NCBI GenBank assembly: GCA_031425655.1
Contig: JANPJS010000003.1
Location: forward strand, 1-11,955
DNA: 11,955 nucleotides
Source: Abditibacteriaceae bacterium
GTDB lineage: Bacteria > Armatimonadota > Abditibacteriia > Abditibacteriales > Abditibacteriaceae
Direction: 5' to 3'
Shown here: in pieces, positions 1 to 11,955 of the stretch
Layout: each line of letters starts with the position of its first letter
How positions within the stretch are numbered: position 1 is the first letter of the stretch
Position numbers and translations under genes: made by a program
The notes under the pieces: model-generated
The model's input: only the letters and a program-made list of their open reading frames with translations
Databases searched by the model: none
What the model was told of the DNA's origin: nothing

Positions 1-112
1 TCCCTCATCCTTCCGCCCTCATCCCTCATCCTTCCGCCCTCATCCCTCATCCTTCCGCCCTCATCCCTCATCCTTCCGCCCTCATCCCTCATCCTTCCGC
101 CCTCATCCCTCA
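1..112. repeat. Tandem repeat of a 21-bp unit TCCCTCATCCTTCCGCCCTCA (5 full copies plus a partial copy), built from three heptamers; truncated by the window edge
   Basis: Read directly: the unit repeats perfectly over 1-105, followed by TCCCTCA at 106-112. The sub-units TCCCTCA/TCCTTCC/GCCCTCA are 7-mers. Confidence 0.97.
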
Positions 113-168
113 GAAAGCGGCCTTTCATTTGCATTCTCCGGCGCGAAGTTTCACAAGGAAGAACGACC

Positions 169-1236
169 ATGAAAGTGCCCAGCATCAAAGAGTTCGGCGA
201 ACTTTTAAAAGACACCTACACCGATTGGAACGAAGACAAAGCGCCGCGACTGGGCGCTGCGCTGGCGTATTACACCATCTTTTCGATGGCGCCTTTGCTT
301 GTCGTCGTGATGGGCATCGTCGGCATTTTCTATTCGGGCAGTGATGTCGCGCTGCAAAAGCAAATGACCGAAGCGGTCGGCCCCGAAGCCGCCGGCGCCA
401 TCACTGACATCTTGAAAAACGCCAATCAAAACAAAAGCGGCGGCATCTGGGCGACTATTTTGGGCACCGCCACGCTGCTTTTGGGCGCCGGCGGCCTGTT
501 CGGACAATTGCAGGATTCGCTGAACACCATCTGGGAAGTGCAGCCAAAGCCGGGACAGGGCTTCATGGCGATGATCAAAAATCGCTTTATGTCCTTTTCG
601 ATGGTGCTGGGCACCGGCTTCATTTTGCTGGTATCGCTTTTCGTGACCGCCATGATTTCCAGCCTCGGAGCCTACATGGAAAGTGTGCTGCCACTGCCCG
701 CTTTCGTGTTGCAGATCATCAATTTCGTGGTGGCGTTCGCGGTCATTACGCTGCTTTTCGCCATGATCTTCAAAGTGCTGCCGGACGTGGAAATCGGCTG
801 GCACGACGTGTGGGTCGGCGCCGCAGTGACTTCATTTTTGTTCGGCGTCGGCAAGTTTGCGCTGGGCCTTTATCTGGGCAAGAGCAGCGTGGCGTCGGCT
901 TACGGCGCAGCGGGAAGCCTCGCGGTTTTGCTGTTGTGGATTTACTACGCGGCGCAGATTCTCTTTTTCGGCGCCGAATTCACGCAGGTTTACGCCAAAA
1001 AATACGGCTCGAAAATCGTGCCCTCGCCCAACGCCGAACCCATGACCGCAGAAGCGCGCGAGCAACAGGGCATGAAGGGCAGCGATGCGCCGATGCCCGC
1101 AGGCGGCGCAGTTGCCATCGTGCATCCGCACGGCATGGCGCCCAAATCCTCACAGGCGCGCGACATGGAATTCCTCTGGCCCGCCGCCGTCGGCTTTCTC
1201 ACCATTTTGTTATTCAAACAGCGGCGCAGAAAGTGA
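169..1236 (+). CDS. yihY: YihY/virulence factor BrkB family inner-membrane protein
   Basis: 355 aa with family motifs GAALAYYTIFSMAPLL, LQDSLNTIW, FKVLPD and YGAAGSLAVLLLWIYYAAQILFFGAEF. Multiple TM helices. AAGGAAG precedes the ATG. Confidence 0.93.
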   Translation: MKVPSIKEFGELLKDTYTDWNEDKAPRLGAALAYYTIFSMAPLLVVVMGIVGIFYSGSDVALQKQMTEAVGPEAAGAITDILKNANQNKSGGIWATILGTATLLLGAGGLFGQLQDSLNTIWEVQPKPGQGFMAMIKNRFMSFSMVLGTGFILLVSLFVTAMISSLGAYMESVLPLPAFVLQIINFVVAFAVITLLFAMIFKVLPDVEIGWHDVWVGAAVTSFLFGVGKFALGLYLGKSSVASAYGAAGSLAVLLLWIYYAAQILFFGAEFTQVYAKKYGSKIVPSPNAEPMTAEAREQQGMKGSDAPMPAGGAVAIVHPHGMAPKSSQARDMEFLWPAAVGFLTILLFKQRRRK

Positions 1237-1289
1237 ATTCAGATTAAACAGCCCCGAATCGCTTCTCTTGGAAATTCCTGCACAACAGG

Positions 1290-1667
1290 CTATTTACGGC
1301 GCGCACGCCACACGAGGAATGCACCGAGCGCACCGAAAGCGAAGCTGGTGAAAATTAGCAAGCCAACCAGTGCCACACCGCCGTTTATGTCCGAAGCAAC
1401 GCCTGCCCACTCGATATACCAACGCAAAGGCCAGAACAGAATAATTGGGAGTAAGATTGCTCCGATTATATAAGCGCCAATCATTCTTAGCGTAAGAAAA
1501 AATTGTTCATTGATCGCAATCACTTCCTCACCTGCTCTTTTCTCCTTAGTTAGAATTTCTTGTGTCACCAGTTCATATCGCTCTGGATATTTCTCTTTGT
1601 CAATGTGTTGAGCCGCATCATAAAGTTGTTCCAAGGAATAATTCTGATAATCTGGCGTGTCATCCAT
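1290..1667 (-). CDS. Hypothetical membrane protein (N-terminal helical PDYxxYSLEQL...IDKEKYPERY segment plus two TM helices)
   Basis: 125-aa ATG-started ORF with a protein-like composition, two hydrophobic helices and a basic tail (WRARRK). Visibly AT-richer than its neighbours. Confidence 0.8.
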   Translation of the reverse strand: MDDTPDYQNYSLEQLYDAAQHIDKEKYPERYELVTQEILTKEKRAGEEVIAINEQFFLTLRMIGAYIIGAILLPIILFWPLRWYIEWAGVASDINGGVALVGLLIFTSFAFGALGAFLVWRARRK

Positions 1668-1740
1668 GCGGTTAGTTTCTCTTGTTCGCCTTTATTTTGT
1701 GCGTCAAACCCGGCACGACGGCACAACACCTGTTTAGGCT

Positions 1741-1788
1741 GCGTCCGCGTAAATCCGTGGCCGTTTCTGTGAAATCTGTGTTCTATTT
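1741..1788. repeat. Degenerate half of a 9-nt-period REP-like palindromic repeat (TCCGCGTAAATCCGTG / TCTGTGAAATCTGTG)
   Basis: Two 9-nt-period doublets directly downstream of the 1796 stop codon. No complementary arm is visible nearby. Confidence 0.5.
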
Positions 1789-1795
1789 CGCGCGT

Positions 1796-2608
1796 TCAAC
1801 GGCGCTTTTCGGGCAAGACGAACTCGGCGTAAGGCACCGTCCACACCACGGGATGCGCCAAACGATGCCCGTGGTAGCCATCTTCTCCGAAAGCGGTGCC
1901 GTGATCGGAAGTCAGCACGCAAAGCGACGGCGCGCGGCGCTGCAACGCTTCAAAAAGCGGCGGCAAATGCGTGTCTACATAAGCTAAGGCATCGCTCATC
2001 GTTTCGGTTGAATCGCGCTCGGCGCCCGGCGTCCACAGATAGCTCGGCTGATGCAGCGCCGAAATGTTGATGAACAAAAACACGCGCCGTCCGCGTGGCA
2101 GCGATTGCAAAACTTCGATAGCCCGCGCGACTTGATGCTGCGTCGAGTGCGCGGCGGTCACGCTCATTTCTTCGTTCCAGTGGCTTTCGGCGAAAAGGCC
2201 CGGCAGCACGCACGCCAGCGGCGTGAGCTTGTTGAAAAACCCCACGCCGCCGATGCAAACCGTATGATAATTGCTTTGCGCCAGGCCGCTGACGATGTCG
2301 GGCGCATCGAAAACCATCGTGGTTTCCGTCGCGCTTTCGCTGCCCGCAAAGCGTGTGGCGAACAAGCGCGGCGCGTGCGGATTTTCAATCGGCGTAGGCA
2401 GAAATCCGGCGAAAAACGCATGGTGCGCCGCGTAAGTGAAACTGCCCGGCGTGTGACGCGCCTGCCACGCGCCGCCCGGCAAAAGCGCCCGCAAGTTGGG
2501 AGTGCGCCCTTGTCGCAGCGCGTTTTGCGCCACGTCGAAGCGCAGCGTATCCAACGTCACCAAAACGATGTCATGCGTGCCCAACAGGGCGCGCGAGTTG
2601 AGATTCAT
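1796..2608 (-). CDS. STM4013/SEN3800 family hydrolase (alkaline phosphatase/sulfatase superfamily)
   Basis: Motifs GTHDIVLVTLDTLRFDVA, HTPGSFTYAAHHAFFAGFLPTP, CIGGVGFFNK, FLFINISALHQP and SDHGTAFGEDGYHGHRLAHPVVWTVPY. ATG at 2608 (MNLNSR) is preferred over GTG at 2644 because a TATAAT lies between them. Confidence 0.9.
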   Translation of the reverse strand: MNLNSRALLGTHDIVLVTLDTLRFDVAQNALRQGRTPNLRALLPGGAWQARHTPGSFTYAAHHAFFAGFLPTPIENPHAPRLFATRFAGSESATETTMVFDAPDIVSGLAQSNYHTVCIGGVGFFNKLTPLACVLPGLFAESHWNEEMSVTAAHSTQHQVARAIEVLQSLPRGRRVFLFINISALHQPSYLWTPGAERDSTETMSDALAYVDTHLPPLFEALQRRAPSLCVLTSDHGTAFGEDGYHGHRLAHPVVWTVPYAEFVLPEKRR

Positions 2609-2626
2609 AAGAGATTCCAATCCCTG

Positions 2627-2676
2627 ATTATACCTTGTGGCCACTCTCTGAGATTTTCCCGCGCCTGACGTAAACT
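2627..2676. promoter_or_regulatory. Divergent promoter region: TATAAT on the minus strand (2632-2627) for the hydrolase and TAAACT on the plus strand (2671-2676) for the FG-GAP gene
   Basis: The hexamers match the sigma70 -10 consensus TANNNT. The plus-strand one lies 7 nt before ATG 2684, with no Shine-Dalgarno sequence. Confidence 0.5.
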
Positions 2677-2683
2677 ACACGCC

Positions 2684-3958
2684 ATGAAACGGCAATCCAC
2701 GATGGTAATTGCGCTGATTTTCAGCGCCTGCACTGCGGCGACGGCGCAAAATGCGCTTCCCAACACCCCGACGAATGTGAGTTGGAAAAAGACGGTTCTC
2801 GATAAGAAGTTTCGCGCCGAGGGCGCGGCGGTCGCGGACGTAAATCACGACGGCAAAAACGATATTCTCGTCGGCGATTTATGGTATGAAGCGCCGAACT
2901 GGACGCCGCACGAGATTCGCAAGCCGTTGGAACTCGGCGACGGCGCGAACAAATACAGCGAAGCCTTCCTGTGCTGGGCCGACGACTTCAACGGCGACGG
3001 TTGGAGCGACCTTTTGATCGTCGGCTATCCCGGCAAAGGGCCGCACTGGTATGAAAATCCCAAGAATGCCGCCGGCCATTGGAAAGAGCGATTGGTCTGG
3101 AAAAGCGCCTGCAACGAAGGGCCGATTTTCGCCGAACTCTTCGGTGACGGCAAACGGCGTCTGGTCGCCGCTTCGTGCGAAGAAGGCCAGATGGCGTGGT
3201 TCGAGCCGACGGCCAACGCCGACGCGCCGTGGACAAAGCATCCAATTAGCATGGAACAAAAGCCGGGCGTCGAAGTATGGGGCGTCAACCGCTTCGATCA
3301 CGGATTGGGCGCGGGCGACATGAACGGCGATGGCCGCACCGATGTATTAGTGAGGCAAGGCTGGTGGGAGCAACCGGCGGACGCCAAAACCAGTATGCAG
3401 CCGTGGCGCTTTCACGTCGCAAATATGGGCGAAGATTGCGCGAATATCATCGCATTGGACGGCAACGGCGATGGACACACCGACGCCATTACCAGCTCGG
3501 CGCACAAGCGCGGCATCTGGTTTCACAAGCGCACGCCCGACAAGCCGGCGGGCTTCGCGCGCAGCGTTTTATTCGACGCTTTCACGCAAAGCCACGCTTT
3601 AATCTACGAAGACATCAACGGTGATGGCGCGAAGGATTTAATCACCGGCAAGCGCTGGTGGGCGCACGGCCCAGCCGGCGACATAGAACCGATGGCGGCT
3701 CCGGTGCTTTATTGGTTCGAGATCAAAAAAACGCCCGGCGAAGCGCCCAAACTGGTGCCGCATTTAATTGATGACGCCAGCGGCATCGGCACGCAGTTTG
3801 AAGTCGCCGATGTCAACGGCGACAAAAAGCTCGATATCGTAGTCGCCAACAAAAAAGGCGTCTTTCTCTTCGAGAATAATTACCCACAAAACGCGCAAAA
3901 GGCACAAAAAGAACATCTTTTTACTTCTTTTTGTGCCTTTTGCGCCTTTTGTGGTTAA
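2684..3958 (+). CDS. Secreted FG-GAP/VCBS repeat (integrin-like beta-propeller) protein
   Basis: Signal peptide ending ATA-Q. Repeated Ca-binding blades DVNHDGKNDI, DFNGDGWSDL, DMNGDGRTDV, DGNGDGHTDA, DINGDGAKDL and DVNGDKKLDI. Confidence 0.92.
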   Translation: MKRQSTMVIALIFSACTAATAQNALPNTPTNVSWKKTVLDKKFRAEGAAVADVNHDGKNDILVGDLWYEAPNWTPHEIRKPLELGDGANKYSEAFLCWADDFNGDGWSDLLIVGYPGKGPHWYENPKNAAGHWKERLVWKSACNEGPIFAELFGDGKRRLVAASCEEGQMAWFEPTANADAPWTKHPISMEQKPGVEVWGVNRFDHGLGAGDMNGDGRTDVLVRQGWWEQPADAKTSMQPWRFHVANMGEDCANIIALDGNGDGHTDAITSSAHKRGIWFHKRTPDKPAGFARSVLFDAFTQSHALIYEDINGDGAKDLITGKRWWAHGPAGDIEPMAAPVLYWFEIKKTPGEAPKLVPHLIDDASGIGTQFEVADVNGDKKLDIVVANKKGVFLFENNYPQNAQKAQKEHLFTSFCAFCAFCG

Positions 3959-3960
3959 TT
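3878..3960. repeat. Palindromic REP-like element: 36-bp arms (2 mismatches), 11-nt loop, internal 9-nt periodicity; overlaps the 3' end of the FG-GAP CDS
   Basis: Left arm 3878-3913 AATTACCCACAAAACGCGCAAAAGGCACAAAAAGAA is the near reverse complement of 3925-3960. Confidence 0.92.
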
Positions 3961-4128
3961 TAACCCAAGTTGCTACCTATGCGGCAATTTGGAGTGCGCG
4001 AACTTGTTCGCGCCGTTTCGAGCCGACTTGTCGGCGTAAAACCTCCAAAACAGACGGGTTATGCCGACAAGTCGGCTCTTAAAAGCGGCGACAAGTCGCC
4101 GCACTCCATAAGTAGCAACTTGGGTTAA
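3960..4128. mobile_element. MITE/REPIN-like non-autonomous element with 17-bp perfect terminal inverted repeats and nested REP-like hairpins
   Basis: Outer IR TTAACCCAAGTTGCTAC (3960-3976) / GTAGCAACTTGGGTTAA (4112-4128). Middle imperfect IR TGGAGTGCG...(3990-4018) / AAAAGCGGCGACAAGTCGCCGCACTCCA (4081-4108). Inner perfect 16-bp IR GAGCCGACTTGTCGGC (4020-4035) / 4063-4078. Confidence 0.75.
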
Positions 4129-4129
4129 T

Positions 4130-6946
4130 TTATTTGGCTTGCGATTGCTGATAAAGCGCGGCAAGCTGCGAGGGCGTGACGGCGACGTAATCGGGGCCGA
4201 GCAAGTCGAGCATTTTCTTCAAGTCCTTCATCTTGCTGCCCCAATTCCAGATGAAAACATTGGTAAAAGCCGGGCGCGAATTGCCAATGCGCGTGCGAAT
4301 ATCGTTCGCCATTTTTTCGGGTGAGCCGTCGTAGGAAATCGCGCGAAAAACCGGCTGGCCGGTCGGCAAGGTGTAAGTCAGTTCAGGATATTTGTTTTCG
4401 TCGCGCCAACCGTAATCGGGCATTAAAAACGGCACGCGCGGCGTGAGGCGGCCAACGCGCGCGATGTCCTCAGTCGCCACGTTCATCAAGCGCAGAGATT
4501 TCATGTCCATGCGCGCCATGTAATCCTGCGTCCAGTTGTAAAAACTGCGCTCCGACTTTTCGCGGTCGCTTTTGCTGAGCACGGCGCCCCAATCCGGCGG
4601 ATAAATGTAACCCACGCCCGACACATCGCAGATGAATTCGTCTTTGTCCGTCGCGTTGTCGAAATACCACTGCGCCCACGTCGGCGCGACATCAATCAAG
4701 GTCGGCCCCATGCCCCAACCAACCGGAAAAGTGCCGTGCAACGGGTCGTTGAAATACTCGCGGAAGTAGCGCCGCCACGTCACCAGATTGTCGCCGTCGG
4801 ACATGGTAATCGCAATGTAGATTTTGCTTTTATCCAGCGTGGGCACCGCCGCCTGCGGCTTCTGTTTGAGGCTTTGCAACTTTACGCCGCTGAAAACTGA
4901 AAAATTCGGCGTCAAATCGCTCACGATAGTCACTTTGCCGAATTGACTCGACAGTGAAACGCCGGGCGTTTCATCAATGCCCTGCCCGTCGCCGTGCCAC
5001 CAGAAGCCGCGCACTACGGAGTGAAGCGGCATTTGGGCGAATAAGGCCTTGATTTCTTCGAGTTCGGCACTGGTGTCGGCGCCCGGCTTGTCTTGCGCGC
5101 GATGGCCTGTAATCCAGAAAACCGCGCCGCGCGCCGCGATAATTTGATCAAGTGAGCCGTTGTCATACATCGAAGGGTCGAGGCAAATCGAAATGTATGG
5201 ATTGAGGCGAGGAAAAACTTGCGTGCGAATGTAGCGCAGAGCAGCGGCGTTGTCTGTGAATTTGCCGCGCAAATCGGCGACAATCGGCAACTTCAATTGC
5301 GCCGCCAATTGTGGCGTGGCGATAACAAAACTATCGGCGCCCGACAGCGACGCCGCGACGCACGGGCTGGCGTAAACATTGGGGTCGGAAATCACGACGC
5401 CGGGAATTTCTGCGCGAAACTTTTCGACTAAATCCAGCGGTTTGGCCACTTCAATCGCCGCGCCGGTTTGACCGCGCTTTTGCATTTCCCCAAGCCAGAA
5501 ACGGTCATCTTCGCCGTATTGCAAATAAATGCGCGGCTGCTTGCGATTGACGATGCCCTGCAACGAAGAAAGCAGCAGCTTTTCATCGAAACTCAGACGG
5601 CGCACATCGGCCACATAAAGCTGCGCGGCAGGCTCCGGCATTTTCGGCTGAAACGTTTCGTAAGGACGCTTTGGCTGCGGCAGTTTTAAGTTGACATAGC
5701 GAATCGGTTGGGGCAGCGCATCCAGACGCGCGAACAGCGCTTTCGCCGAAGCAATTTTCTTCTGCGCCGCTAACGCCGCAATGGTTGATCGCACCAGAAT
5801 TTGGTTAGCGACAAAGCCGGGATTGGCATTGGCCGGATGGTTTGTCCAAACCGTCACGGAGCCGCTCGGATATTGAATTAAAGCGGTTAGAGGCTGGCCT
5901 TGCCAGATTAAAAACGGCGTGACTTTAGCGCCCTGCGGCAGAGATTTCACGTTCAACCACTGCGGCGTATCGGCAGGCCATTCGATGCCCAGCGACTTTA
6001 AGCGCAGCGGATCGCCGGGCGCGATTTGCGTTGGTAGTTTGACCTTGCCCGGCCCGGCAAAACCGCCGGCTTCGATGCCGTTTGGCCCGTTGCCTCCGGC
6101 TGCGTCGCTGTGCCCCAAATCGCTCCATTCGCCGCCGAGATTTTCAAAGTCGCCGTTGGCTAAAGCCGACTTTGCGCCGTTGATGGTGACTTGGATGTTG
6201 TCCAGACGCACCACGCGCTTTGCGCTGCGGATTTGCAGCGAAATATCGTAAGCGGCGGTGCCCGGCGGCGCTGTCGCATCCGCTTCGATTTTTTGCCATG
6301 TTGCGCCATTAGATAGCTGCGGCCCGAACTGCGAAATGAATTCGCCGCCCGCATCGAAAAAGCGAATATAAAGCTCGTCTTTGCCGACTTCACCCGCTAC
6401 GTTTTGCGACCACGCTTCGAGGTGGAATTTATCGCCCGTTTTGGCTTCTAATCGCGGCGAATCTACGCCGGCCCATTCGTGCATTCCTTTGATTTCTAAG
6501 GCCCGCGTGCCGCTATTGGCTTTGTCCGTCAAGCGCACGTTTTCGCCCCAACTGGGCCGCGCCGTCCAGCGCGCCGCCGAAGCATTGGCCACAGGATGCG
6601 TGAACGGAATACCAGTCACGACTAAGGCGCCGCCCGCGCGATGAAACGCCTGCAAATTGCGGAACGCCGGCTGCGGAAACGTGTTGCCGTAGGGCAAAAC
6701 AAGGGCGTCGTAGTGCGCCAAATTAAAGCGATTGGCATCGGTCAGCGCAGCGCCATCCAACAAATCTGCGTCGAGGCCAATCGCCTTCAAATTTCCAGCG
6801 ATGGCGCGCGGCGAAGCGAACGGCGTGGCGTTGTAAAAAGGAAAACCCGGCTCAAAAAAGACCGCCACACGCGGCGATTTTTCGGCGGCCTGCGCGCGAC
6901 AAGTCAGAAATATGGCGACGGCAAAAACGGCAAATTTCAATCGCAT
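4130..6946 (-). CDS. Secreted GxGYxYP-family putative glycoside hydrolase with an N-terminal GATase-like (beta-galactosidase trimerisation/ThuA-like) domain and an inserted CBM4/9-like module
   Basis: 938 aa. Signal peptide ending AQA-A. SLQGIVNRKQPRIY (GxGYxYP N-terminal region), MSDGDN and SGVGYIYP signature motifs. Residues about 127-274 have a CBM-like pattern. Confidence 0.88.
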   Translation of the reverse strand: MRLKFAVFAVAIFLTCRAQAAEKSPRVAVFFEPGFPFYNATPFASPRAIAGNLKAIGLDADLLDGAALTDANRFNLAHYDALVLPYGNTFPQPAFRNLQAFHRAGGALVVTGIPFTHPVANASAARWTARPSWGENVRLTDKANSGTRALEIKGMHEWAGVDSPRLEAKTGDKFHLEAWSQNVAGEVGKDELYIRFFDAGGEFISQFGPQLSNGATWQKIEADATAPPGTAAYDISLQIRSAKRVVRLDNIQVTINGAKSALANGDFENLGGEWSDLGHSDAAGGNGPNGIEAGGFAGPGKVKLPTQIAPGDPLRLKSLGIEWPADTPQWLNVKSLPQGAKVTPFLIWQGQPLTALIQYPSGSVTVWTNHPANANPGFVANQILVRSTIAALAAQKKIASAKALFARLDALPQPIRYVNLKLPQPKRPYETFQPKMPEPAAQLYVADVRRLSFDEKLLLSSLQGIVNRKQPRIYLQYGEDDRFWLGEMQKRGQTGAAIEVAKPLDLVEKFRAEIPGVVISDPNVYASPCVAASLSGADSFVIATPQLAAQLKLPIVADLRGKFTDNAAALRYIRTQVFPRLNPYISICLDPSMYDNGSLDQIIAARGAVFWITGHRAQDKPGADTSAELEEIKALFAQMPLHSVVRGFWWHGDGQGIDETPGVSLSSQFGKVTIVSDLTPNFSVFSGVKLQSLKQKPQAAVPTLDKSKIYIAITMSDGDNLVTWRRYFREYFNDPLHGTFPVGWGMGPTLIDVAPTWAQWYFDNATDKDEFICDVSGVGYIYPPDWGAVLSKSDREKSERSFYNWTQDYMARMDMKSLRLMNVATEDIARVGRLTPRVPFLMPDYGWRDENKYPELTYTLPTGQPVFRAISYDGSPEKMANDIRTRIGNSRPAFTNVFIWNWGSKMKDLKKMLDLLGPDYVAVTPSQLAALYQQSQAK

Positions 6947-6949
6947 AAT

Positions 6950-7460
6950 TTATTCTTCCGCCGCTTCCAGCGCGCCCAACGCAAGCGAAGAAGTGCGCGG
7001 CTTTAATTGCAGGTGCGGCGCATATTGTCCTTCGATTTTCAGCGCGCGGCGCACGCCGTCTCCATCCTCGTGAGCCAGATTAGGCGCAGCGTCCTGTGCC
7101 ACACCCGCATCTTTGCGCGGGCGAAAGTCGCGTCCGGCGGCGTTGGTGAATTCGGGGTCGGGGCCGCTGAAATTGCTGACGTTTTCGGCTTTCACCGGCG
7201 TTTTCCAGAGCATCGTGATCTGCGGCCTCCTGCATCACACTTTCTTGTTTTGAACCTCTGCTGCCTGTTTGGCCTCTTCAGCGCGTTTTGCGGTCTCTAA
7301 ACGCTCATGATAGATGCCGGAATCAACTTCCACAATGTCGCCAGCTTTGTTGTAGAGCAAGGTTTTGCAGGCTTTTTAAGTCGCGCGCCGGCCCGATTTG
7401 ATAGGTTTTGGCAATGGCGGAGACGGCGAGAAGCAGACAAACAAGAAGTAGAGAGCGCAT
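6950..7460 (-). pseudogene. Remnant of a secreted, probably right-handed beta-helix protein: frameshifted 5' end (7460 to about 7305), centre missing, 3' end retained (about 7213-6950)
   Basis: ATG 7460 reads MRSLLLVCLLLAVSAIAKTYQIGPARDLKSLQNLA. After a 2-nt deletion it continues KAGDIVEVDSGIYHE, a GDxVxVxxGxYxE start typical of beta-helix enzymes. The C-terminal DPEFTNAAGRDFRP...LGALE is typical of their ends. The stop lies 3 nt before the GxGYxYP start. Confidence 0.8.
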
Positions 7461-7539
7461 GACGCCCGTTGATTTCACGCCTACAGGGTTCACAGCTAAA
7501 TGTGCTTTATGTAAGGCGCAAAAGCCCTACGCCTATAGA

Positions 7540-7890
7540 TTACAAATCCAATTCATAGCGCAGCGCCGCGTTCACATGAGTCATAGTGTCGGCATCCAAA
7601 ACACCAACCAGTTTTTCCAAGCGAGACTGATCTATGGTCAGAAGTTGGGCACAGTTAACGTGGCCGTCACGCGGCAAATTGCCGTCGCCTTTGGCGAGAG
7701 GAACCGTGAATGGATAAACGCGCGGCAAAGGCGCGCTGCTAATAGCGACGACGACCGTATAAGACGAATTTTCGTTGCCGCGATTGTTTTGCACCACCAG
7801 AGCGGGGCGCCGCCCGCCTTGCTCCACGCCGCGTGCCGGCTCGAAATTCACCCAGTAAATCTCGCCGCGCTGCGGTTTCGATTTAGGCAT
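7540..7890 (-). CDS. mazF: Type II toxin-antitoxin system PemK/MazF family endoribonuclease toxin
   Basis: 116 aa with QRGEIYWVNFEPARGVEQGGRRPALVVQNNRGN and CAQLLTIDQSRL. The start overlaps the antitoxin stop by 8 nt. Confidence 0.96.
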   Translation of the reverse strand: MPKSKPQRGEIYWVNFEPARGVEQGGRRPALVVQNNRGNENSSYTVVVAISSAPLPRVYPFTVPLAKGDGNLPRDGHVNCAQLLTIDQSRLEKLVGVLDADTMTHVNAALRYELDL

Positions 7891-8170
7891 CGGCGGTTCC
7901 CTTGCGTTTTTTGCGATGCGATTCTGGGCTTTCTTCCCATTCCGGCCACGTTTGCGCCGCTACCGGCCCGGCAGCGGCGGCAAAGTTCGCCGTGTCGGAC
8001 GACAGCAAGCGATAGCCTTCTGCTGCCGCTTCATCGCGGCTGCGGCGGATTTCGTCCTCAATCAACTCCGCCAAATAGCGACTGGCCGGCTTTTGCAACT
8101 CCGCCGTGCGACGGCGTAATTTTTCGGCTACCGCACCATCAAGTGAAATATTCAATTTTACTACGGGCAT
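7883..8170 (-). CDS. Ribbon-helix-helix (CopG/NdoAI-like) antitoxin
   Basis: 95 aa. The N-terminal KLNISLD...SRYLAELIEDEI fits a RHH fold. AAEGY resembles the NdoAI/MazE motif. GAGGTG RBS. Located directly upstream of and overlapping mazF. Confidence 0.88.
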   Translation of the reverse strand: MPVVKLNISLDGAVAEKLRRRTAELQKPASRYLAELIEDEIRRSRDEAAAEGYRLLSSDTANFAAAAGPVAAQTWPEWEESPESHRKKRKGTADA

Positions 8171-8183
8171 AATTCACCTCTCG

Positions 8184-8216
8184 ACACAGTGTGGTGCCTT
8201 ATCTGTGTGGCGTCAA
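8184..8216 (-). promoter_or_regulatory. Putative TA promoter: -35 TTGACG (8216-8211), 17-nt spacer, -10 CACACT (8193-8188), overlapped by CCACAC repeats (putative operator)
   Basis: The minus strand reads TTGACG-CCACACAGATAAGGCAC-CACACT-GTGTCGAGAGGTGAATT-ATG. Confidence 0.6.
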
Positions 8217-8250
8217 GTTCTCTCCTTATAGTAAAGAACTAACAGCGCTA

Positions 8251-8660
8251 TCAATTCAACTTACTCGCTACCGTCAGCACGCGCGGCGGCGCCGAGATTG
8301 TGCCGATAGGCGCGCCGTCCTTGAAAACCGTCGCAGTTTGCGATTGCGCCGTCGGGTTGAAAACGAGGTAATTCCAAACCTTCGTGCGCGGATTGAAATA
8401 AACGCGCGATAGCGGCAGGCTCAGGTGATAATTCCACTGAATCTCGCCTAAAGTGGTTGGATGCCGCTTTTTTTGGTGTGTTTTTCCTGCATAGTCAGCA
8501 TAGTTCCGAGGCTCTTTTTCGCCCACGCCGGGTCGCGCGCTAAATACGCCAACGCCGGCGACATCGGCAGCCATTGAATCGCGTAAACCCAAGCCGGGTC
8601 GCCGCTGAAATACGTCCCAAAAAGCTGGCCCCCGCTCCACACCATGCCGACAATCGGCGG
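8251..8660 (-). pseudogene. C-terminal remnant of a GH81-like endo-beta-1,3-glucanase (copy 1), with an internal deletion/frameshift near 8460-8490
   Basis: IVGMVWSGGQLFGTYFSGDPAWVYAIQWLPMSP resembles the conserved GH81 GMVW...T(W/Y)FS...IQxLP segment. A second frame continues TLGEIQWNYHLSLPLSRVYFNP...YLVFNPTAQSQTATVFKDG to the stop at 8251. Confidence 0.75.
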
Positions 8661-8678
8661 TTTGCGCGTGCCGCTGTT

Positions 8679-8852
8679 TTACAGCTTTAGCACTTCACGA
8701 TAGGTGCCGGAATCAACTTCCACGACATCGCCGGCTTTGAGTTGCGGCGCAAGGTTTTGGAGGCTTTTCAAGTCGCGCCCCGGCCCAATTTGATAAGTTT
8801 TGGCGACAGCAGGTAAAGCGAGGCACAGGAGAACCAGAAGTAGAGAGCGCAT
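8679..8852 (-). pseudogene. 5' fragment (57 codons) of the same secreted beta-helix-type gene (second copy), fused in frame to the GH81 remnant
   Basis: MRSLLLVLLCLALPAVAKTYQIGPGRDLKSLQNLAPQLKAGDVVEVDSGTYREVLKL*. About 80% nt identity to 7311-7460 by hand alignment (28 mismatches and a 2-nt gap in 152). Confidence 0.85.
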
Positions 8853-8896
8853 GGCGCCAGTTTAAAGCAAATTGTTAATGCTTTGATGAGGCGCAT

Positions 8897-8951
8897 CGTC
8901 AAAAGACAACGCCGAGCATCATATTCGGATGCTCGGCGTTGTCTTTTGACG
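8897..8951. terminator. Perfect 24-bp inverted repeat with a 7-nt loop downstream of the TolB-like gene; probable terminator or mRNA-stabilising hairpin
   Basis: CGTCAAAAGACAACGCCGAGCATC (8897-8920) / GATGCTCGGCGTTGTCTTTTGACG (8928-8951), 14 nt beyond the stop at 8966. Confidence 0.7.
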
Positions 8952-8965
8952 GTATTTGATGCACC

Positions 8966-11176
8966 TTAACGCGCCGTCGTTGTGCCGGTGCCATCTGGCA
9001 AAGCATTGCCTTGCCCATCTTGTAACCCATTCCAATTCACCGAAACAATCGCCCCCGACTTCATCGCGCCGTCCGGTAGCAGCAGCGTCACCGCGGAAGC
9101 GTTGCCGGACAACGCTGCGCTTTCCACCTGCACCGCTTTGCCATCCACGCTCACACTGAAGCGGGAGGCGTCTGCCGCCGATGCTGCCAGAGCGCCACTG
9201 AAAGTGAGGCGAATGGCTCCGCCGGAGGCATCCGCTTCGGCGCTCGACAAGAACACCGCCGAACTCAAAGCAACGCTATTCGCCGCGACCGGCGGCACGG
9301 TGCCCGGCGCCCACGACGGCATAGTGTCAGTGCTAAAGTTTTGGGTCAGTTGCAGAGTTGGAACTAACTGTTCGCCCAGCACACCTGTGATACAGATTTC
9401 GTTATCTCCGCCGCCGCGCGTAGAAGTGAAAGCGAGGCGCGTTCCGTCGGGACTGAAACATGGCAGAACGTCCGTTACGCTACTATAGGTCACACGCTGC
9501 TGCGCGCTGCCATCGCCACGCATCACGTAAATCTCATATTGGCCCGCTATGCGGTTCGACTGGAATGCGATGAGGTTGCCGTTAGCGCTCCAACTGGGCT
9601 TGTTGTCAAGGCCACCGCTTGTGGTCAATCGCTTTTGATTGCTGCCGTCACTGTTCATCACGTAGATGTCATCGTTGTTGTCACGCCGCGAGTGAAAAAC
9701 GATCTTAGTGCCATCGGAATTGAAGCTGGGATGGTCATCTATAAGGGTGTTGTTCGTCAGGCGCTGCACGCTGGAGCCATTGCTGTTCATCAGGTAAATT
9801 TCCGAGTTGCCGTCGCGCGTCGAGACGAATATGATGCGGCTGCCGTCCGGCGAGAATTGCGGTTCGGAATCGCTGGCCGGATTATTAGTCAAGCGTTGCG
9901 GGTTAGTGCCGGCGGCGCTCATCACGTAGATTTCGCGGTTACCGTCGCGGCTCGACGAAAACACAATGCGACTGCCGTCGCGCGAAAAGTGAGGCGTATC
10001 GTCCGCCGCCGGGTTGGTGGTCAGACGCGTCTGGTTCGAGCCATCGGCGTTCATGACGTAAATCTCACTATTGGCATCGCGGGTGGCGGTGAAGGCAATT
10101 TTGCCGGTGAGCGGGCCGGGCGGAGGTAAGGTCGGCGTGGGCGTGGGCATTGCTGTTGGCGTGGGCGTAGGTATAGGTGTAGGTTTCGGCGTCGGGGTCG
10201 GATTCGGATTCGTAACGGAACCAAGGCTCCAGGAAGGGAAGTTATCCATCGCCAAATTATTAGTGAGACGCGTTTGGTTGGAGCCATCGGCATTCATCAC
10301 ATAAATCTCATCGTTGCCGTTCCGGTCGGTATTAAAGGCGATTTTGCTTCCATCCGGGCTGAAGACGGGACGGTTATCTACCCCTGGGTTGTTAGTGATG
10401 CGGGTTTGGTTGCTGCCATCAGCGTTCATCACGTAAACCTCAAGATTGCCGTCCCGGTCGGAACGGAACGCGATTTTGCTGCCGTCCGGGCTAAAAGAGG
10501 GTTGAGCGTCAAACCCCGTGTTATTAGTAAGGCGAGTTACCCCGCTGCCATTGGCATTCATCACATAAATGGACTGGGTGCTGCCGCTCCGATCCGAGAC
10601 AAAGACAATCTTGCTGCCGTCGGGACTGAAACTGGGATGGAAGTCACTCGCCGGATCGTTGGTAAGACGAGTTTGCCCGCTGCCATCGGCGTTCATCACA
10701 TAAATCTCAGGGTTCCCGTTGCGGTTGGAATTGAAGGCGATTCTGCTGCCTCCCGAATTGAGCGACGCTTCAATATCAGCCGCTGGGTTATTAGTGAGGC
10801 GGGTTTGCCCACTGCCATCAGCGTTCATCACGTAAATCTCGCCGTTGCCATCGCGGTCAGAACTGAACGCAATGCGAGAGCCGCTCCTGTTGGTTGAGGG
10901 TCTAATGTCCGGGGCGTTATTGTTGGTGAGGCGGGTTTGCCCGCTACCATCGGCATTCATCACGTAAATCTCGGAGTTGCCATCGCGCCTGCTCGCAAAA
11001 ACGATCTTGCCGGACGATGTTTGGGCCATAGCTGGCCGGATGAATCCGACGGCTTGCGGCGCGGCCCAAAATGCAGATTGTGGTTCAGCGTTGCGCGTGT
11101 CGTGCGGCGCCAGCAATAGAGCCGCGCCTGTAGCAACGGCGGCTGCGGCAATTAGTCGGAGCGTGTTTTTCTGCAT
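8966..11176 (-). CDS. Secreted TolB-like protein: two PD40/WD40-like six-bladed propellers, a Pro-Thr linker and a C-terminal SwmB/Ig-like domain
   Basis: About 44-aa repeats of PSFSPDGSKIAFxSxRDGNxEIYVMNADGSxQTRLTNN in two blocks separated by a PTPTP linker. ATG 11176 (MQKNTLRL, followed by a hydrophobic signal) is preferred over GTG 11206. Confidence 0.92.
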   Translation of the reverse strand: MQKNTLRLIAAAAVATGAALLLAPHDTRNAEPQSAFWAAPQAVGFIRPAMAQTSSGKIVFASRRDGNSEIYVMNADGSGQTRLTNNNAPDIRPSTNRSGSRIAFSSDRDGNGEIYVMNADGSGQTRLTNNPAADIEASLNSGGSRIAFNSNRNGNPEIYVMNADGSGQTRLTNDPASDFHPSFSPDGSKIVFVSDRSGSTQSIYVMNANGSGVTRLTNNTGFDAQPSFSPDGSKIAFRSDRDGNLEVYVMNADGSNQTRITNNPGVDNRPVFSPDGSKIAFNTDRNGNDEIYVMNADGSNQTRLTNNLAMDNFPSWSLGSVTNPNPTPTPKPTPIPTPTPTAMPTPTPTLPPPGPLTGKIAFTATRDANSEIYVMNADGSNQTRLTTNPAADDTPHFSRDGSRIVFSSSRDGNREIYVMSAAGTNPQRLTNNPASDSEPQFSPDGSRIIFVSTRDGNSEIYLMNSNGSSVQRLTNNTLIDDHPSFNSDGTKIVFHSRRDNNDDIYVMNSDGSNQKRLTTSGGLDNKPSWSANGNLIAFQSNRIAGQYEIYVMRGDGSAQQRVTYSSVTDVLPCFSPDGTRLAFTSTRGGGDNEICITGVLGEQLVPTLQLTQNFSTDTMPSWAPGTVPPVAANSVALSSAVFLSSAEADASGGAIRLTFSGALAASAADASRFSVSVDGKAVQVESAALSGNASAVTLLLPDGAMKSGAIVSVNWNGLQDGQGNALPDGTGTTTAR

Positions 11177-11251
11177 GATGTTTCTCTTCAAGACTTTATT
11201 TCTCACTTTAACGGCGCGACTGGCTGTTCATCGGCTTTTCAGTTGGCAATC

Positions 11252-11277
11252 TTAGAACCTATTCAAATAGGCTCTAA
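11252..11277. repeat. 26-bp palindrome TTAGAACCTATT-CA-AATAGGCTCTAA, resembling fused IS5-type ends or an operator
   Basis: 12-bp arms with one mismatch, read directly. Confidence 0.55.
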
Positions 11278-11536
11278 ATCTCACAATGTGAAAAGAAGTG
11301 CCCCGAAACGAAAAAAAGTCGCCCGCGGATGCGGACGGTTTCTTCAAAACGAATTCCAAATTTAACGACGCAACACAATTCTGGCACGACTCGTGGGGCA
11401 TTTCAGGCCCGCTCAACACTGCCGCACCGATTGATAAATCACCAGCGACGTTCGGCAAAAATTGCGGACGGGCAAACATAACGCGAATCATTGTAGTAGC
11501 CGTTGGTTAAGCGCGTCAAGGGCGAATGAAGACCCT

Positions 11537-11750
11537 CTATTTCAACTTCGTCGCCACTGTTAGCACGCGCGGCGACTAATGTTCCGACAGGCGCGCCGTC
11601 TTTATAAACCGTGGCGGTTTGCGATTGCGCCGTCGGGTTGAAAACAAAATAATTCCAAACTTTCGTGCGCGGATTGAAATAAACGCGCGATAGCGGCAGG
11701 CTGAGATGATAATTCCACCGAATTTCGCCTAACGTGCGGTTGGCGTGCGT
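11537..11750 (-). pseudogene. C-terminal remnant of the GH81-like gene (copy 2)
   Basis: Reads THANRTLGEIRWNYHLSLPLSRVYFNPRTKVWNYFVFNPTAQSQTATVYKDGAPVGT, then a 5-nt deletion, then PRVLTVATKLK*. 11582-11736 matches 8301-8455 with 16 mismatches in 155 nt. Confidence 0.85.
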
Positions 11751-11851
11751 CCCAAACCGTAACGGTTGAAGGCAGTCTGTTTGGAAGGAGGCGCCAGCCC
11801 AATGGCATTAAGTTAGTGAAAGAAGAGCGGCTTTGCCGCTCCTGAAAACCC

Positions 11852-11955
11852 CCAACCCCCTTGGTAAGGGGGCTAAATTTATTACGCTGTTGCACAAAGC
11901 CGAGTTTGAGTAGTGCCATAGCGTTTGAATTTAGCCCCCTTACCAAGGGGGTTGG
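11852..11955. repeat. REP-doublet-like long palindrome: perfect inverted arms of at least 28 bp, each containing a CCCCCTT-NNN-AAGGGGG hairpin, with a nested 12-bp imperfect IR; truncated by the window edge
   Basis: CCAACCCCCTTGGTAAGGGGGCTAAATT (11852-11879) / 11928-11955. Inner ACGCTGTTGCAC (11884-11895) / GTGCCATAGCGT (11913-11924). Confidence 0.9.

Follow-up and report, generated by a model that had tools for sequence, protein, structure and literature searches.

How does the same junction between two gene ends come to stand twice in one short stretch of bacterial DNA, each time with different intact genes inside? The question is raised by contig JANPJS010000003.1 of an Abditibacteriaceae genome (G000; 327 contigs, 5.98 Mb, 97% complete). 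The entire contig (C3), 11,955 nt in length, is the window analysed here. On its minus strand, the 3' end of a glycoside hydrolase gene of the GH81 family and the 5' end of a gene for a beta-helix protein (bh) occur twice in tandem, as units A and B. Unit A encloses a PD40/TolB-like gene (cargo A), unit B a toxin-antitoxin pair (cargo B), and a gene of the GxGYxYP family follows. The region probably, although by no means certainly, goes back to a single additive recombination event, in which two diverged alleles of a locus GH81 - X - bh - GxGYxYP were stacked and whose scar has since decayed (X denotes the genes in the spacer). This reading is carried by the nature of the divergence between the two units, by the joint that connects them and by similar loci elsewhere in the same genome.

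Two broken units and their divergence

Intact close orthologues of both flank genes exist elsewhere: a 398-aa Beta_helix protein (P0001) and a 775-aa GH81 protein (P0003, PF17652). The pieces were compared with these two proteins and with the GH81 genes of three genomes of the same genus (G001, G002, G003). Read along the minus strand, the region is composed as follows:

11778..11955, no strand: multi-copy palindromic interspersed repeat resembling repetitive extragenic palindromes or miniature inverted-repeat transposable elements (REP/MITE-like), with 28-nt perfect inverted arms; multi-copy by blastn
~11775..11540, minus strand: GH81_A, a 3' fragment; tblastn with P0003 and alignment to the G001-G003 genes
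11206..8966, minus strand: cargo A, an intact PD40/TolB-like gene of 746 aa; PF07676, E=1.3e-107
8897..8951, no strand: perfect hairpin with 24-nt arms, located 3' of cargo A; inverted-repeat search
8852..8664, minus strand: bh_A, bh codons 1-63; tblastn with P0001 and a hidden Markov model (HMM)
8649..8665, minus strand: junction of bh_A and GH81_B; positions 8649-8663 are covered by the alignments of both P0001 and P0003
8663..8251, minus strand: GH81_B; tblastn with P0003 576-646 and alignment to G001-G003
8170..7540, minus strand: cargo B, an intact two-gene pair consisting of a 95-aa open reading frame (ORF) and a MazF/PemK gene; PF02452
7460..7295, minus strand: bh_B 5' part, codons 1-56; found in two frames by tblastn with P0001 12-37 and 39-56
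7294..7223, minus strand: 72-nt filler, separating the bh_B 5' part from the 3' end
7222..6953 with the stop codon at 6950-6952, minus strand: bh_B 3' end, codons 309-398; tblastn with P0001 309-398
6946..4130, minus strand: intact putative glycoside hydrolase of the GxGYxYP family, 938 aa; PF14323, PF16216, PF20958, PF20957

An earlier note, made from the sequence of the window, had described the repeated GH81 3' and bh 5' flanks, and their coordinates and identities hold in a repeat search and in blastn. In the repeat search, the GH81-end copies agree at 90% over 157 ungapped nt (8299-8455 and 11580-11736) and at 85% between 8255-8288 and 11541-11574. The bh-start copies agree at 80% over 122 nt (7349-7470 and 8741-8862) and at 87% between 7305-7349 and 8695-8739. 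In blastn against the whole genome, the values are 85.1% over 208 nt (gapped) for the GH81 ends and 80.4% over 168 nt for the bh starts. The same search found neither flank on any of the other 326 contigs; therefore, the flanks do not belong to a family of dispersed repeats. The repeat period is 3281-3286 nt. The longest identical runs between the copies, 41 nt and 18 nt, lie within the diverged coding repeats. In the alignments, homology between the units begins and ends at the coding limits, as expected for diverged genes with replaced spacers.

Pfam profiles applied to the four fragments alone gave one weak match, GH81C (PF17652, E=0.0056), below the cut-off. The assignment of the flank gene to GH81 is based on its homology to P0003 and to a 768-aa GH81 protein of G003 (PF17652, E=2e-47), both with PF17652. 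The GH81 pieces match the G003 protein at 65% identity. In tblastn, GH81_B (8663-8451) matches P0003 residues 576-646 at 90% and GH81_A (11756-11568) matches residues 692-754 at 79%. The bh pieces match P0001 at 80-82%: bh_A at 8813-8649 with residues 14-68 (80%) and the bh_B 3' end at 7222-6953 with residues 309-398 (81%, E=4e-43). An HMM of five distant bh homologues found both 5' pieces (bh_A with E=2e-15) and gave E=4.1 for the 3' remnant. This remnant is recognised only through P0001 and is an addition to the pieces listed before.

All four flank pieces are indeed broken. GH81_A comprises just codons ~692 to the end, is cut by the repeat starting at 11778 and carries a 5-nt deletion near its end; its homologous stop codon TAG is located at 11537-11539. 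GH81_B consists of codons 576-646, a ~160-nt frame-shifting deletion, and codon ~698 to the stop codon TGA at 8251-8253. In bh_A, codons 1-63 remain, with a nonsense codon TAA at codon 58 (8679-8681; Q58 in P0001). The piece begins at 8852 as previously described, but it ends at about 8664 and not at 8679. bh_B has lost codons 57-308 (252 codons) and has a 2-nt deletion near 7349 in addition to the filler. It was also considered that both bh pieces end at the same codon, as they would in a pre-existing truncated unit. This was ruled out, as P0001 shows that bh_A extends to codon 63-68 and that the two ends are ~7 codons apart.

Codon changes between the copies were counted over 64 codons of GH81 and 56 codons of bh, 120 combined. 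The synonymous (dS) and nonsynonymous (dN) divergence amounts to dS 0.42 and dN 0.061 for GH81 (dN/dS 0.145), dS 0.74 and dN 0.157 for bh (dN/dS 0.21), and dS 0.56 and dN 0.104 for both together (dN/dS 0.19). Nonsynonymous changes make up 26 of 62, compared with a neutral expectation of 75%, and neutrality is rejected (P=4.7e-8). A dN/dS of 0.5, which roughly corresponds to one constrained and one dead lineage, is rejected as well (P=0.004). For scale, the GxGYxYP orthologues of G000 and G002 show dN/dS 0.16 and dS 0.86. The GH81 3' ends of G002 and G003 show dN/dS 0.24 and dS 0.44, to be compared with dS 0.42 between A and B over the same stretch. The low dN/dS means that both copies diverged as working genes. 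Neither unit is a recent copy of the other: by these counts, they diverged like working orthologues of two species of one genus and were broken recently relative to that divergence.

At the amino acid level, GH81_A and GH81_B agree at 57/62 positions. Their agreement with P0003 is 52/63 (A) and 52/62 (B), and with the G003 protein 46/63 and 43/62, respectively. Among the sequences compared, GH81_A and GH81_B are thus each other's closest relatives.

The two units meet at the transition from bh codon 63 to GH81 codon 576, reading ..LKL*NSGTR (bh) followed by KPPIVGMVW.. (GH81). Both parent proteins have P-I at this point, so that up to ~15 nt (8649-8663) fit both parents. The joint is one with little or no homology. 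Its physical reality was assessed with Logan k=31 contigs of sequencing run X1, which is the probable source of the assembly and hence not independent DNA. Three contigs match the window exactly: 83-3874 (depth 9.9), 4081-8410 (depth 12.6) and 8381-11691 (depth 10.9). The earlier note had considered that reads might fail to span the junctions, as in a chimeric assembly of two strains. The bh/GH81 joint is spanned by the contig 8381-11691; since it sits within this single contig at even, chromosomal depth, it is real DNA. The X1 contigs break in the 41-nt stretch that is identical in both GH81 copies, and the contig 8381-11691 starts and ends in the same 30-mer (8381-8410 = 11662-11691), which yields a 3281-nt loop. 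The k=31 data also permit a loop-free chromosome plus a separate circle; the contig of the source assembly runs through both copies. Runs X2, X3 and X4 contain only 151-338-nt pieces, which are silent on the structure, and no contig joined across the loop.

A probable additive event and its alternatives

In the reading preferred here, one allele would have carried the PD40/TolB-like gene in its GH81-bh spacer and the other the toxin-antitoxin pair. Part of one allele would have come from a related lineage and entered the other. Homologous pairing on one side, within GH81 or, in the mirror image, within bh, would have been combined with an illegitimate join on the other side. This join, bh codon 63 against GH81 codon 576, would have taken place inside the resident copy, with DNA being added and not replaced. 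Either linear homology-facilitated illegitimate recombination (HFIR) or the integration of a circularised 3.3-kb fragment through a single crossover may have been the route; both lead to an identical product. The units would thereby have been stacked, with two of the four gene pieces dead on arrival. The GH81 and bh functions would then have been lost by the ~160-nt, 5-nt, 2-nt and 252-codon deletions, the nonsense codon and the truncation of GH81_A beside the repeat. A single homologous joint and a single illegitimate one produce, in one step, the observed order GH81_A' - cargo A - bh_A(1-63) / GH81_B(576-end) - cargo B - bh_B. The stack looks two-sided because the incoming fragment would be an allele of the same locus that reaches into the next conserved gene. 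We infer that DNA was imported from another lineage, that a homologous anchor was involved and in what order the events took place.

The combined dN/dS of 0.19 and a dS in the range between species fit an origin from donor and recipient; a paralogue kept for a long time would look alike. The previous proposal of two stacked alleles stands insofar as diverged alleles of one locus lie head to tail, with low dN/dS in both genes and the GH81 copies as sisters, while alleles with a single cargo were not found. Likewise, the additive homology-facilitated route suggested earlier fits better than the duplication of a partial segment, which predicts near-neutral divergence of dead pieces.

The locus has a vertically inherited anchor in the GxGYxYP gene. 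It starts 3 nt past the bh_B stop codon and its product shares 79% aa identity with the G002 orthologue, which is itself located downstream of GH81. The order in G002 is GH81, a ROK kinase gene, a 271-aa gene and GxGYxYP. In G003, GH81 is followed by the ROK kinase gene and then by other genes, with GxGYxYP 300 kb away, and in G001 the contig ends just past GH81. The GxGYxYP orthologue in G001 (contig C157) has a large internal deletion that joins residues 1-109 to 789-942, and that in G003 (contig C8) is split over several frames. The locus is decaying in other species of the genus, too.

Several observations weigh against an additive event. The ROK kinase gene follows GH81 in both same-genus genomes with readable flanks (G002 and G003), and unrelated genes follow it in 5/5 genomes at the family level. 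No close relative of bh was found in the three same-genus genomes, the sole match (41%) being elsewhere in G002. Eight loci from genomes and 19 from metagenomes encode bh homologues, none with GH81 or GxGYxYP nearby. Neither a donor lineage nor a single-cargo allele was detected among the relatives searched. The homologous anchor, which would lie in GH81 upstream of codon 576 or in bh, is not visible; the assembly nowhere contains the 5' part of GH81_A, so that a further loss must be assumed, and bh_B lacks 252 codons. The order from the left to the right part of unit B is given by the source assembly alone, as the k=31 contigs break at the 41-nt repeat. The bh fragments end just ~7 codons apart (63 vs. 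56), a mild coincidence. bh_A is nearer to P0001 (46/56) than to bh_B (43/55), and bh_B itself is distant from P0001 (37/55). Either the bh copies come from different clades and are no clean sisters, or bh_B decayed faster. According to excerpts of two papers, HFIR is rare in experiments (PMC5361080) and occurs at 3e-10 in E. coli conjugation (PMC3240628). The genome encodes ComEC and DprA, yet these are uninformative on competence, since they exceed the cut-off in 10/14 control genomes (DprA in 11 at E<=0.001).

A metagenome scan with a 57-aa bh piece yielded the 19 loci, with 36-68% identity over partial matches and none of them close. A scan of a genome collection with P0001 yielded the eight loci, with 49-63% identity and no synteny. 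These eight homologues belong to metagenome-assembled genomes (MAGs) labelled Sumerlaeota, Omnitrophota, Phycisphaerae/Planctomycetota and Armatimonadota, a patchy distribution outside the genus of the window. In six more distant relatives, neither GH81 nor the ROK kinase gene, the 271-aa gene or bh was found within ~10 kb upstream of GxGYxYP. Neither cargo lies at this place in any relative searched, and no same-genus genome has a second GH81 or a bh at this locus. The sole evidence for a GH81-bh neighbourhood in two lineages is the two units themselves. A GH81/bh spacer that acts as a variable slot across lineages, as had been proposed, is thus not seen outside the contig: in the relatives searched, GH81 is never beside bh and the cargos are absent there.

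An unlikely alternative, but one that accounts for much, is an old tandem duplication of a complete GH81 - X - bh segment. Both copies would have been functional for a long time and their spacer genes exchanged or gained. A single microhomology-mediated deletion from bh_A codons 64-398 through GH81_B codons 1-575 would have followed, and then decay. Such a history ends in the same topology. It explains both the low dN/dS and the position of the GH81 copies as sisters relative to G001-G003 and P0003, and makes a foreign donor unnecessary, of which none was found. However, two paralogous loci would have to be under selection for dS 0.4-0.7, and two independent cargo changes would have to affect the same spacer. 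The lack of a second GH81, or of a bh at this locus, in the same-genus genomes argues against it, as does the closer relation of bh_A to P0001 than to bh_B. Furthermore, the same signature is found at single-copy housekeeping genes of this genome (glnA, lepA, carB), where whole-gene tandem duplicates are not credible.

The earlier note had pictured an integrase-free cassette-accretion array, that is, a standing variable GH81/bh slot in which dead gene ends are kept and reused as recombination anchors. Different intact cargos in the same spacer of two diverged units and the lack of a recombinase family in the 14 window ORFs scanned are in agreement with it, and the glnA locus with its two successive orphan ends (see below) indicates that repeated addition happens. 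Nevertheless, such an array is improbable. There are just two units, and the contig ends in the repeat at 11778. Frameshifts, deletions and a nonsense codon in the ends are what would be expected of by-products. The low dN/dS speaks for divergence as working genes and not as conserved non-coding anchors, and the relatives searched show neither GH81 beside bh nor either cargo here. Nothing supports an anchoring role of the dead ends, which are more plausibly by-products of a single event.

A partial tandem duplication within the genome, from GH81 codon 576 to bh codon 63 and with subsequent replacement of one cargo, would predict exactly the joint that is observed and the regular period of 3281-3286 nt. 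It is nonetheless highly improbable. Dead copies should drift neutrally, and the low dN/dS (0.19, with even 0.5 rejected) is a poor fit to fragments that were dead from the start. Moreover, differences are found along the entire flanks to their ends, without near-identical outer parts, and the divergence equals a distance between species.

Scarcely credible is an assembly artefact, in which the assembly would have placed the 3281-nt loop (8381-11661) wrongly, owing to mixed strains or a separate circle: the k=31 contigs do break at the shared 30-mer, in the longest exact stretch common to the GH81 copies (41 nt), but the bh/GH81 joint is inside one contig with a depth between those of its flanks (10.9 vs. 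12.6 and 9.9), no shared k-mer is able to create it, the 41-nt repeat should be short enough for individual short reads, and for the larger k values of common assemblers, to bridge it, a 3.3-kb circle without replication gene at chromosomal depth is implausible, and a circle on the alternative path would carry the same joint.

Cargo genes and surroundings of the stack

Cargo A is an intact gene for a secreted PD40 (TolB-like) double beta-propeller with a C-terminal Ig-like/SWM repeat, in which PF07676 matches in 10 stretches. Paralogues with 47-55% aa identity are encoded on contigs C291, C196 and C297 of the same genome. C297 also encodes a 37% homologue of the 271-aa protein whose gene lies upstream of GxGYxYP in G002. 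In cargo B, the 116-aa MazF/PemK toxin (7540-7890) matches PF02452 with E=3e-30 over profile positions 1-106 of 109. The 95-aa ORF upstream of it (7883-8170) overlaps by 8 nt and has no Pfam match. From this arrangement, cargo B can be regarded as a type II toxin-antitoxin pair; the label of a putative ribbon-helix-helix (RHH) antitoxin comes from the earlier note. The previous statement that both cargos are intact is thus supported by Pfam for the PD40/TolB-like and MazF genes, and the RHH label of the 95-aa ORF lacks a Pfam match.

No integrase or transposase family was detected by Pfam in the 14 window ORFs scanned, in line with what had been noticed before, on a contig of just 11,955 nt. 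An inverted-repeat search, which did not employ an attC model, was inspected for attC-type palindromes at the cassette boundaries. It found one hairpin in the stack, at 8897-8951, and none at the other boundaries. This hairpin is single-copy in the genome, has no matches from other contigs and is possibly a terminator.

Between GH81_A and the PD40 gene, a 79-aa ORF without assigned function is located at 11252-11491 on the minus strand. A promoter-like site (10/12 matches) precedes it at 11519-11490 and a terminator-like hairpin lies inside it at 11337-11320. Scans of the window found 4 promoters vs. 2.3±1.3 in shuffled sequence and 11 terminators vs. 8.7±3.4; neither number is above that of shuffled sequence.

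The repeat at 11778-11955 ends the contig and abuts the truncated GH81_A. It has up to 51 blastn high-scoring segment pairs (HSPs) from other contigs, and its depth in run X1 is 126 compared with ~11 for the flanks. Its family is present on dozens of contigs, often at contig ends, and probably breaks the assembly. At the contig start (1-133), a 21-nt unit is repeated ~6x head to tail, with up to 27 HSPs from other contigs and an X1 depth of 333 vs. ~11 for the flanks. Nested inverted repeats with 36-, 50- and 26-nt arms lie at 3878-4132, between the convergent ends of the FG-GAP and GxGYxYP genes. With up to 16 HSPs from other contigs, they represent a second dispersed palindromic repeat family.

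Known events and other scars in the genome

Events of this kind have been described. HFIR is defined in an excerpt of PMC3240628, which reports lacZ-end duplications in 56/60 Lac- clones, 109-950 bp long in 14 sequenced clones and formed by a single crossover of circular molecules. As in HFIR, foreign DNA would here be added beside a homologous anchor by one homologous and one illegitimate joint, with no recombinase gene needed in the insert, and the parents share just P-I at the bh/GH81 joint. In contrast to HFIR, the incoming DNA would be an allele of the same locus that reaches the next conserved gene, and two diverged repeat pairs are found instead of one. Furthermore, the anchor is no longer visible, and the event is deduced from sequence and not observed. 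In Campbell-type insertion-duplication, too, a direct duplication of a homologous segment flanks the insert, and the 3281-nt loop of the k=31 contigs is such a circularisable unit flanked by a direct repeat; this does not separate the route from HFIR. A difference is the lack of any sign here of a circle, a plasmid or a replication function.

Additive displacement explains arrays of orphan gene ends in excerpts of PMC5361080 and PMC2935791, the latter of which refers to 'homologous recombination with circular intermediates'. In the C-terminal displacement at rhs genes and in effector-immunity arrays of type VI secretion systems (T6SS), as far as these excerpts describe them, a new gene end with cargo is added and the old end is displaced downstream as an orphan, and repetition leads to arrays without an integrase. 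However, those are polymorphic-toxin loci with immunity genes kept by selection, whereas here a glycoside hydrolase and a beta-helix protein are concerned, and elsewhere in the genome housekeeping genes. Moreover, there is no sign of selection for an array in this genome.

Accessory genes are also added stepwise at one place in the cassette arrays of integrons, and integrative islands leave a displaced copy of their target gene end. In contrast, neither the unit nor the 12-kb contig contains an integrase, no attC-like element is repeated, and the repeats are long diverged coding sequence instead of a short identical core. The integrase and short identical att core of an island are not found; the Pfam-scanned unit holds only the PD40 gene. 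The stack belongs to a class of events already described, that of HFIR or Campbell-type insertion-duplication and of C-terminal displacement, and is not a new accretion system. What stands out is the clean dN/dS signature and the frequency of such scars in this genome.

A comparison of the genome with itself revealed 81 local pairs of diverged direct repeats. Crude classes are 17 intragenic pairs, 16 between two long ORFs, 14 with a long ORF plus a fragment, and 34 with both short. ORF maps were drawn at 14 of the 81 pairs, and eight of these loci were scanned with Pfam. In all eight (8/8), a gene is followed by 1-6 kb of unrelated cargo and, beyond it, by an orphan copy of the gene's 3' end. 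The genes are those for an Mrp-type ATPase, glnA (with two orphans), lepA, carB, a sugar-phosphate-isomerase-like protein, an alpha/beta hydrolase, a PIG-L deacetylase and an unknown 872-aa protein. The cargos include a rhamnosidase, a Calx-beta protein, a heparinase-like lyase, a DNA methyltransferase, a kinase-regulator-subtilase set and a PIN toxin pair.

For dN/dS at these scars, seven ungapped pairs from six of the eight loci were used, the gapped pairs at loci C306 and C241 being left out. Pooled, they show dS 0.28, dN 0.023 and dN/dS 0.08 (P=2e-15 vs. neutrality), with 14 of 53 changes nonsynonymous (rounded from 13.5). This value implies that the orphan ends are alleles from relatives and not decayed local copies. 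Compared at this level, the window seems to be one more instance of the orphan-end scars of the genome.

On contig C267 (9574-14122), the glutamine synthetase 3' end is present three times, as the gene's own end and two orphans (98% and 96% identity). The three ends are separated by a Calx-beta gene of 1020 aa and an ORF of 117 aa. This arrangement represents a genuine two-step stack at a housekeeping gene.

Beyond this locus, the case illustrates that such stacks can be dated and traced to their source by sequence alone: counts of synonymous and nonsynonymous changes between dead repeat copies separate two alleles that were joined from a fragment that was copied in place. For annotation, short orphan gene ends beside intact accessory genes should be taken as scars and not as cassette boundaries of a new mobile system. 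The six further loci tested, core genes included, suggest that genes are regularly gained by one-sided additive recombination in this little-studied phylum. More tentatively, it is conceivable that the lineage gains its accessory genes mainly by integrase-free additive recombination with the DNA of relatives, which would leave orphan ends at numerous loci, also at housekeeping genes, and can be repeated at one site, as at glnA and here. The window might then be a snapshot of a general process of accretion.

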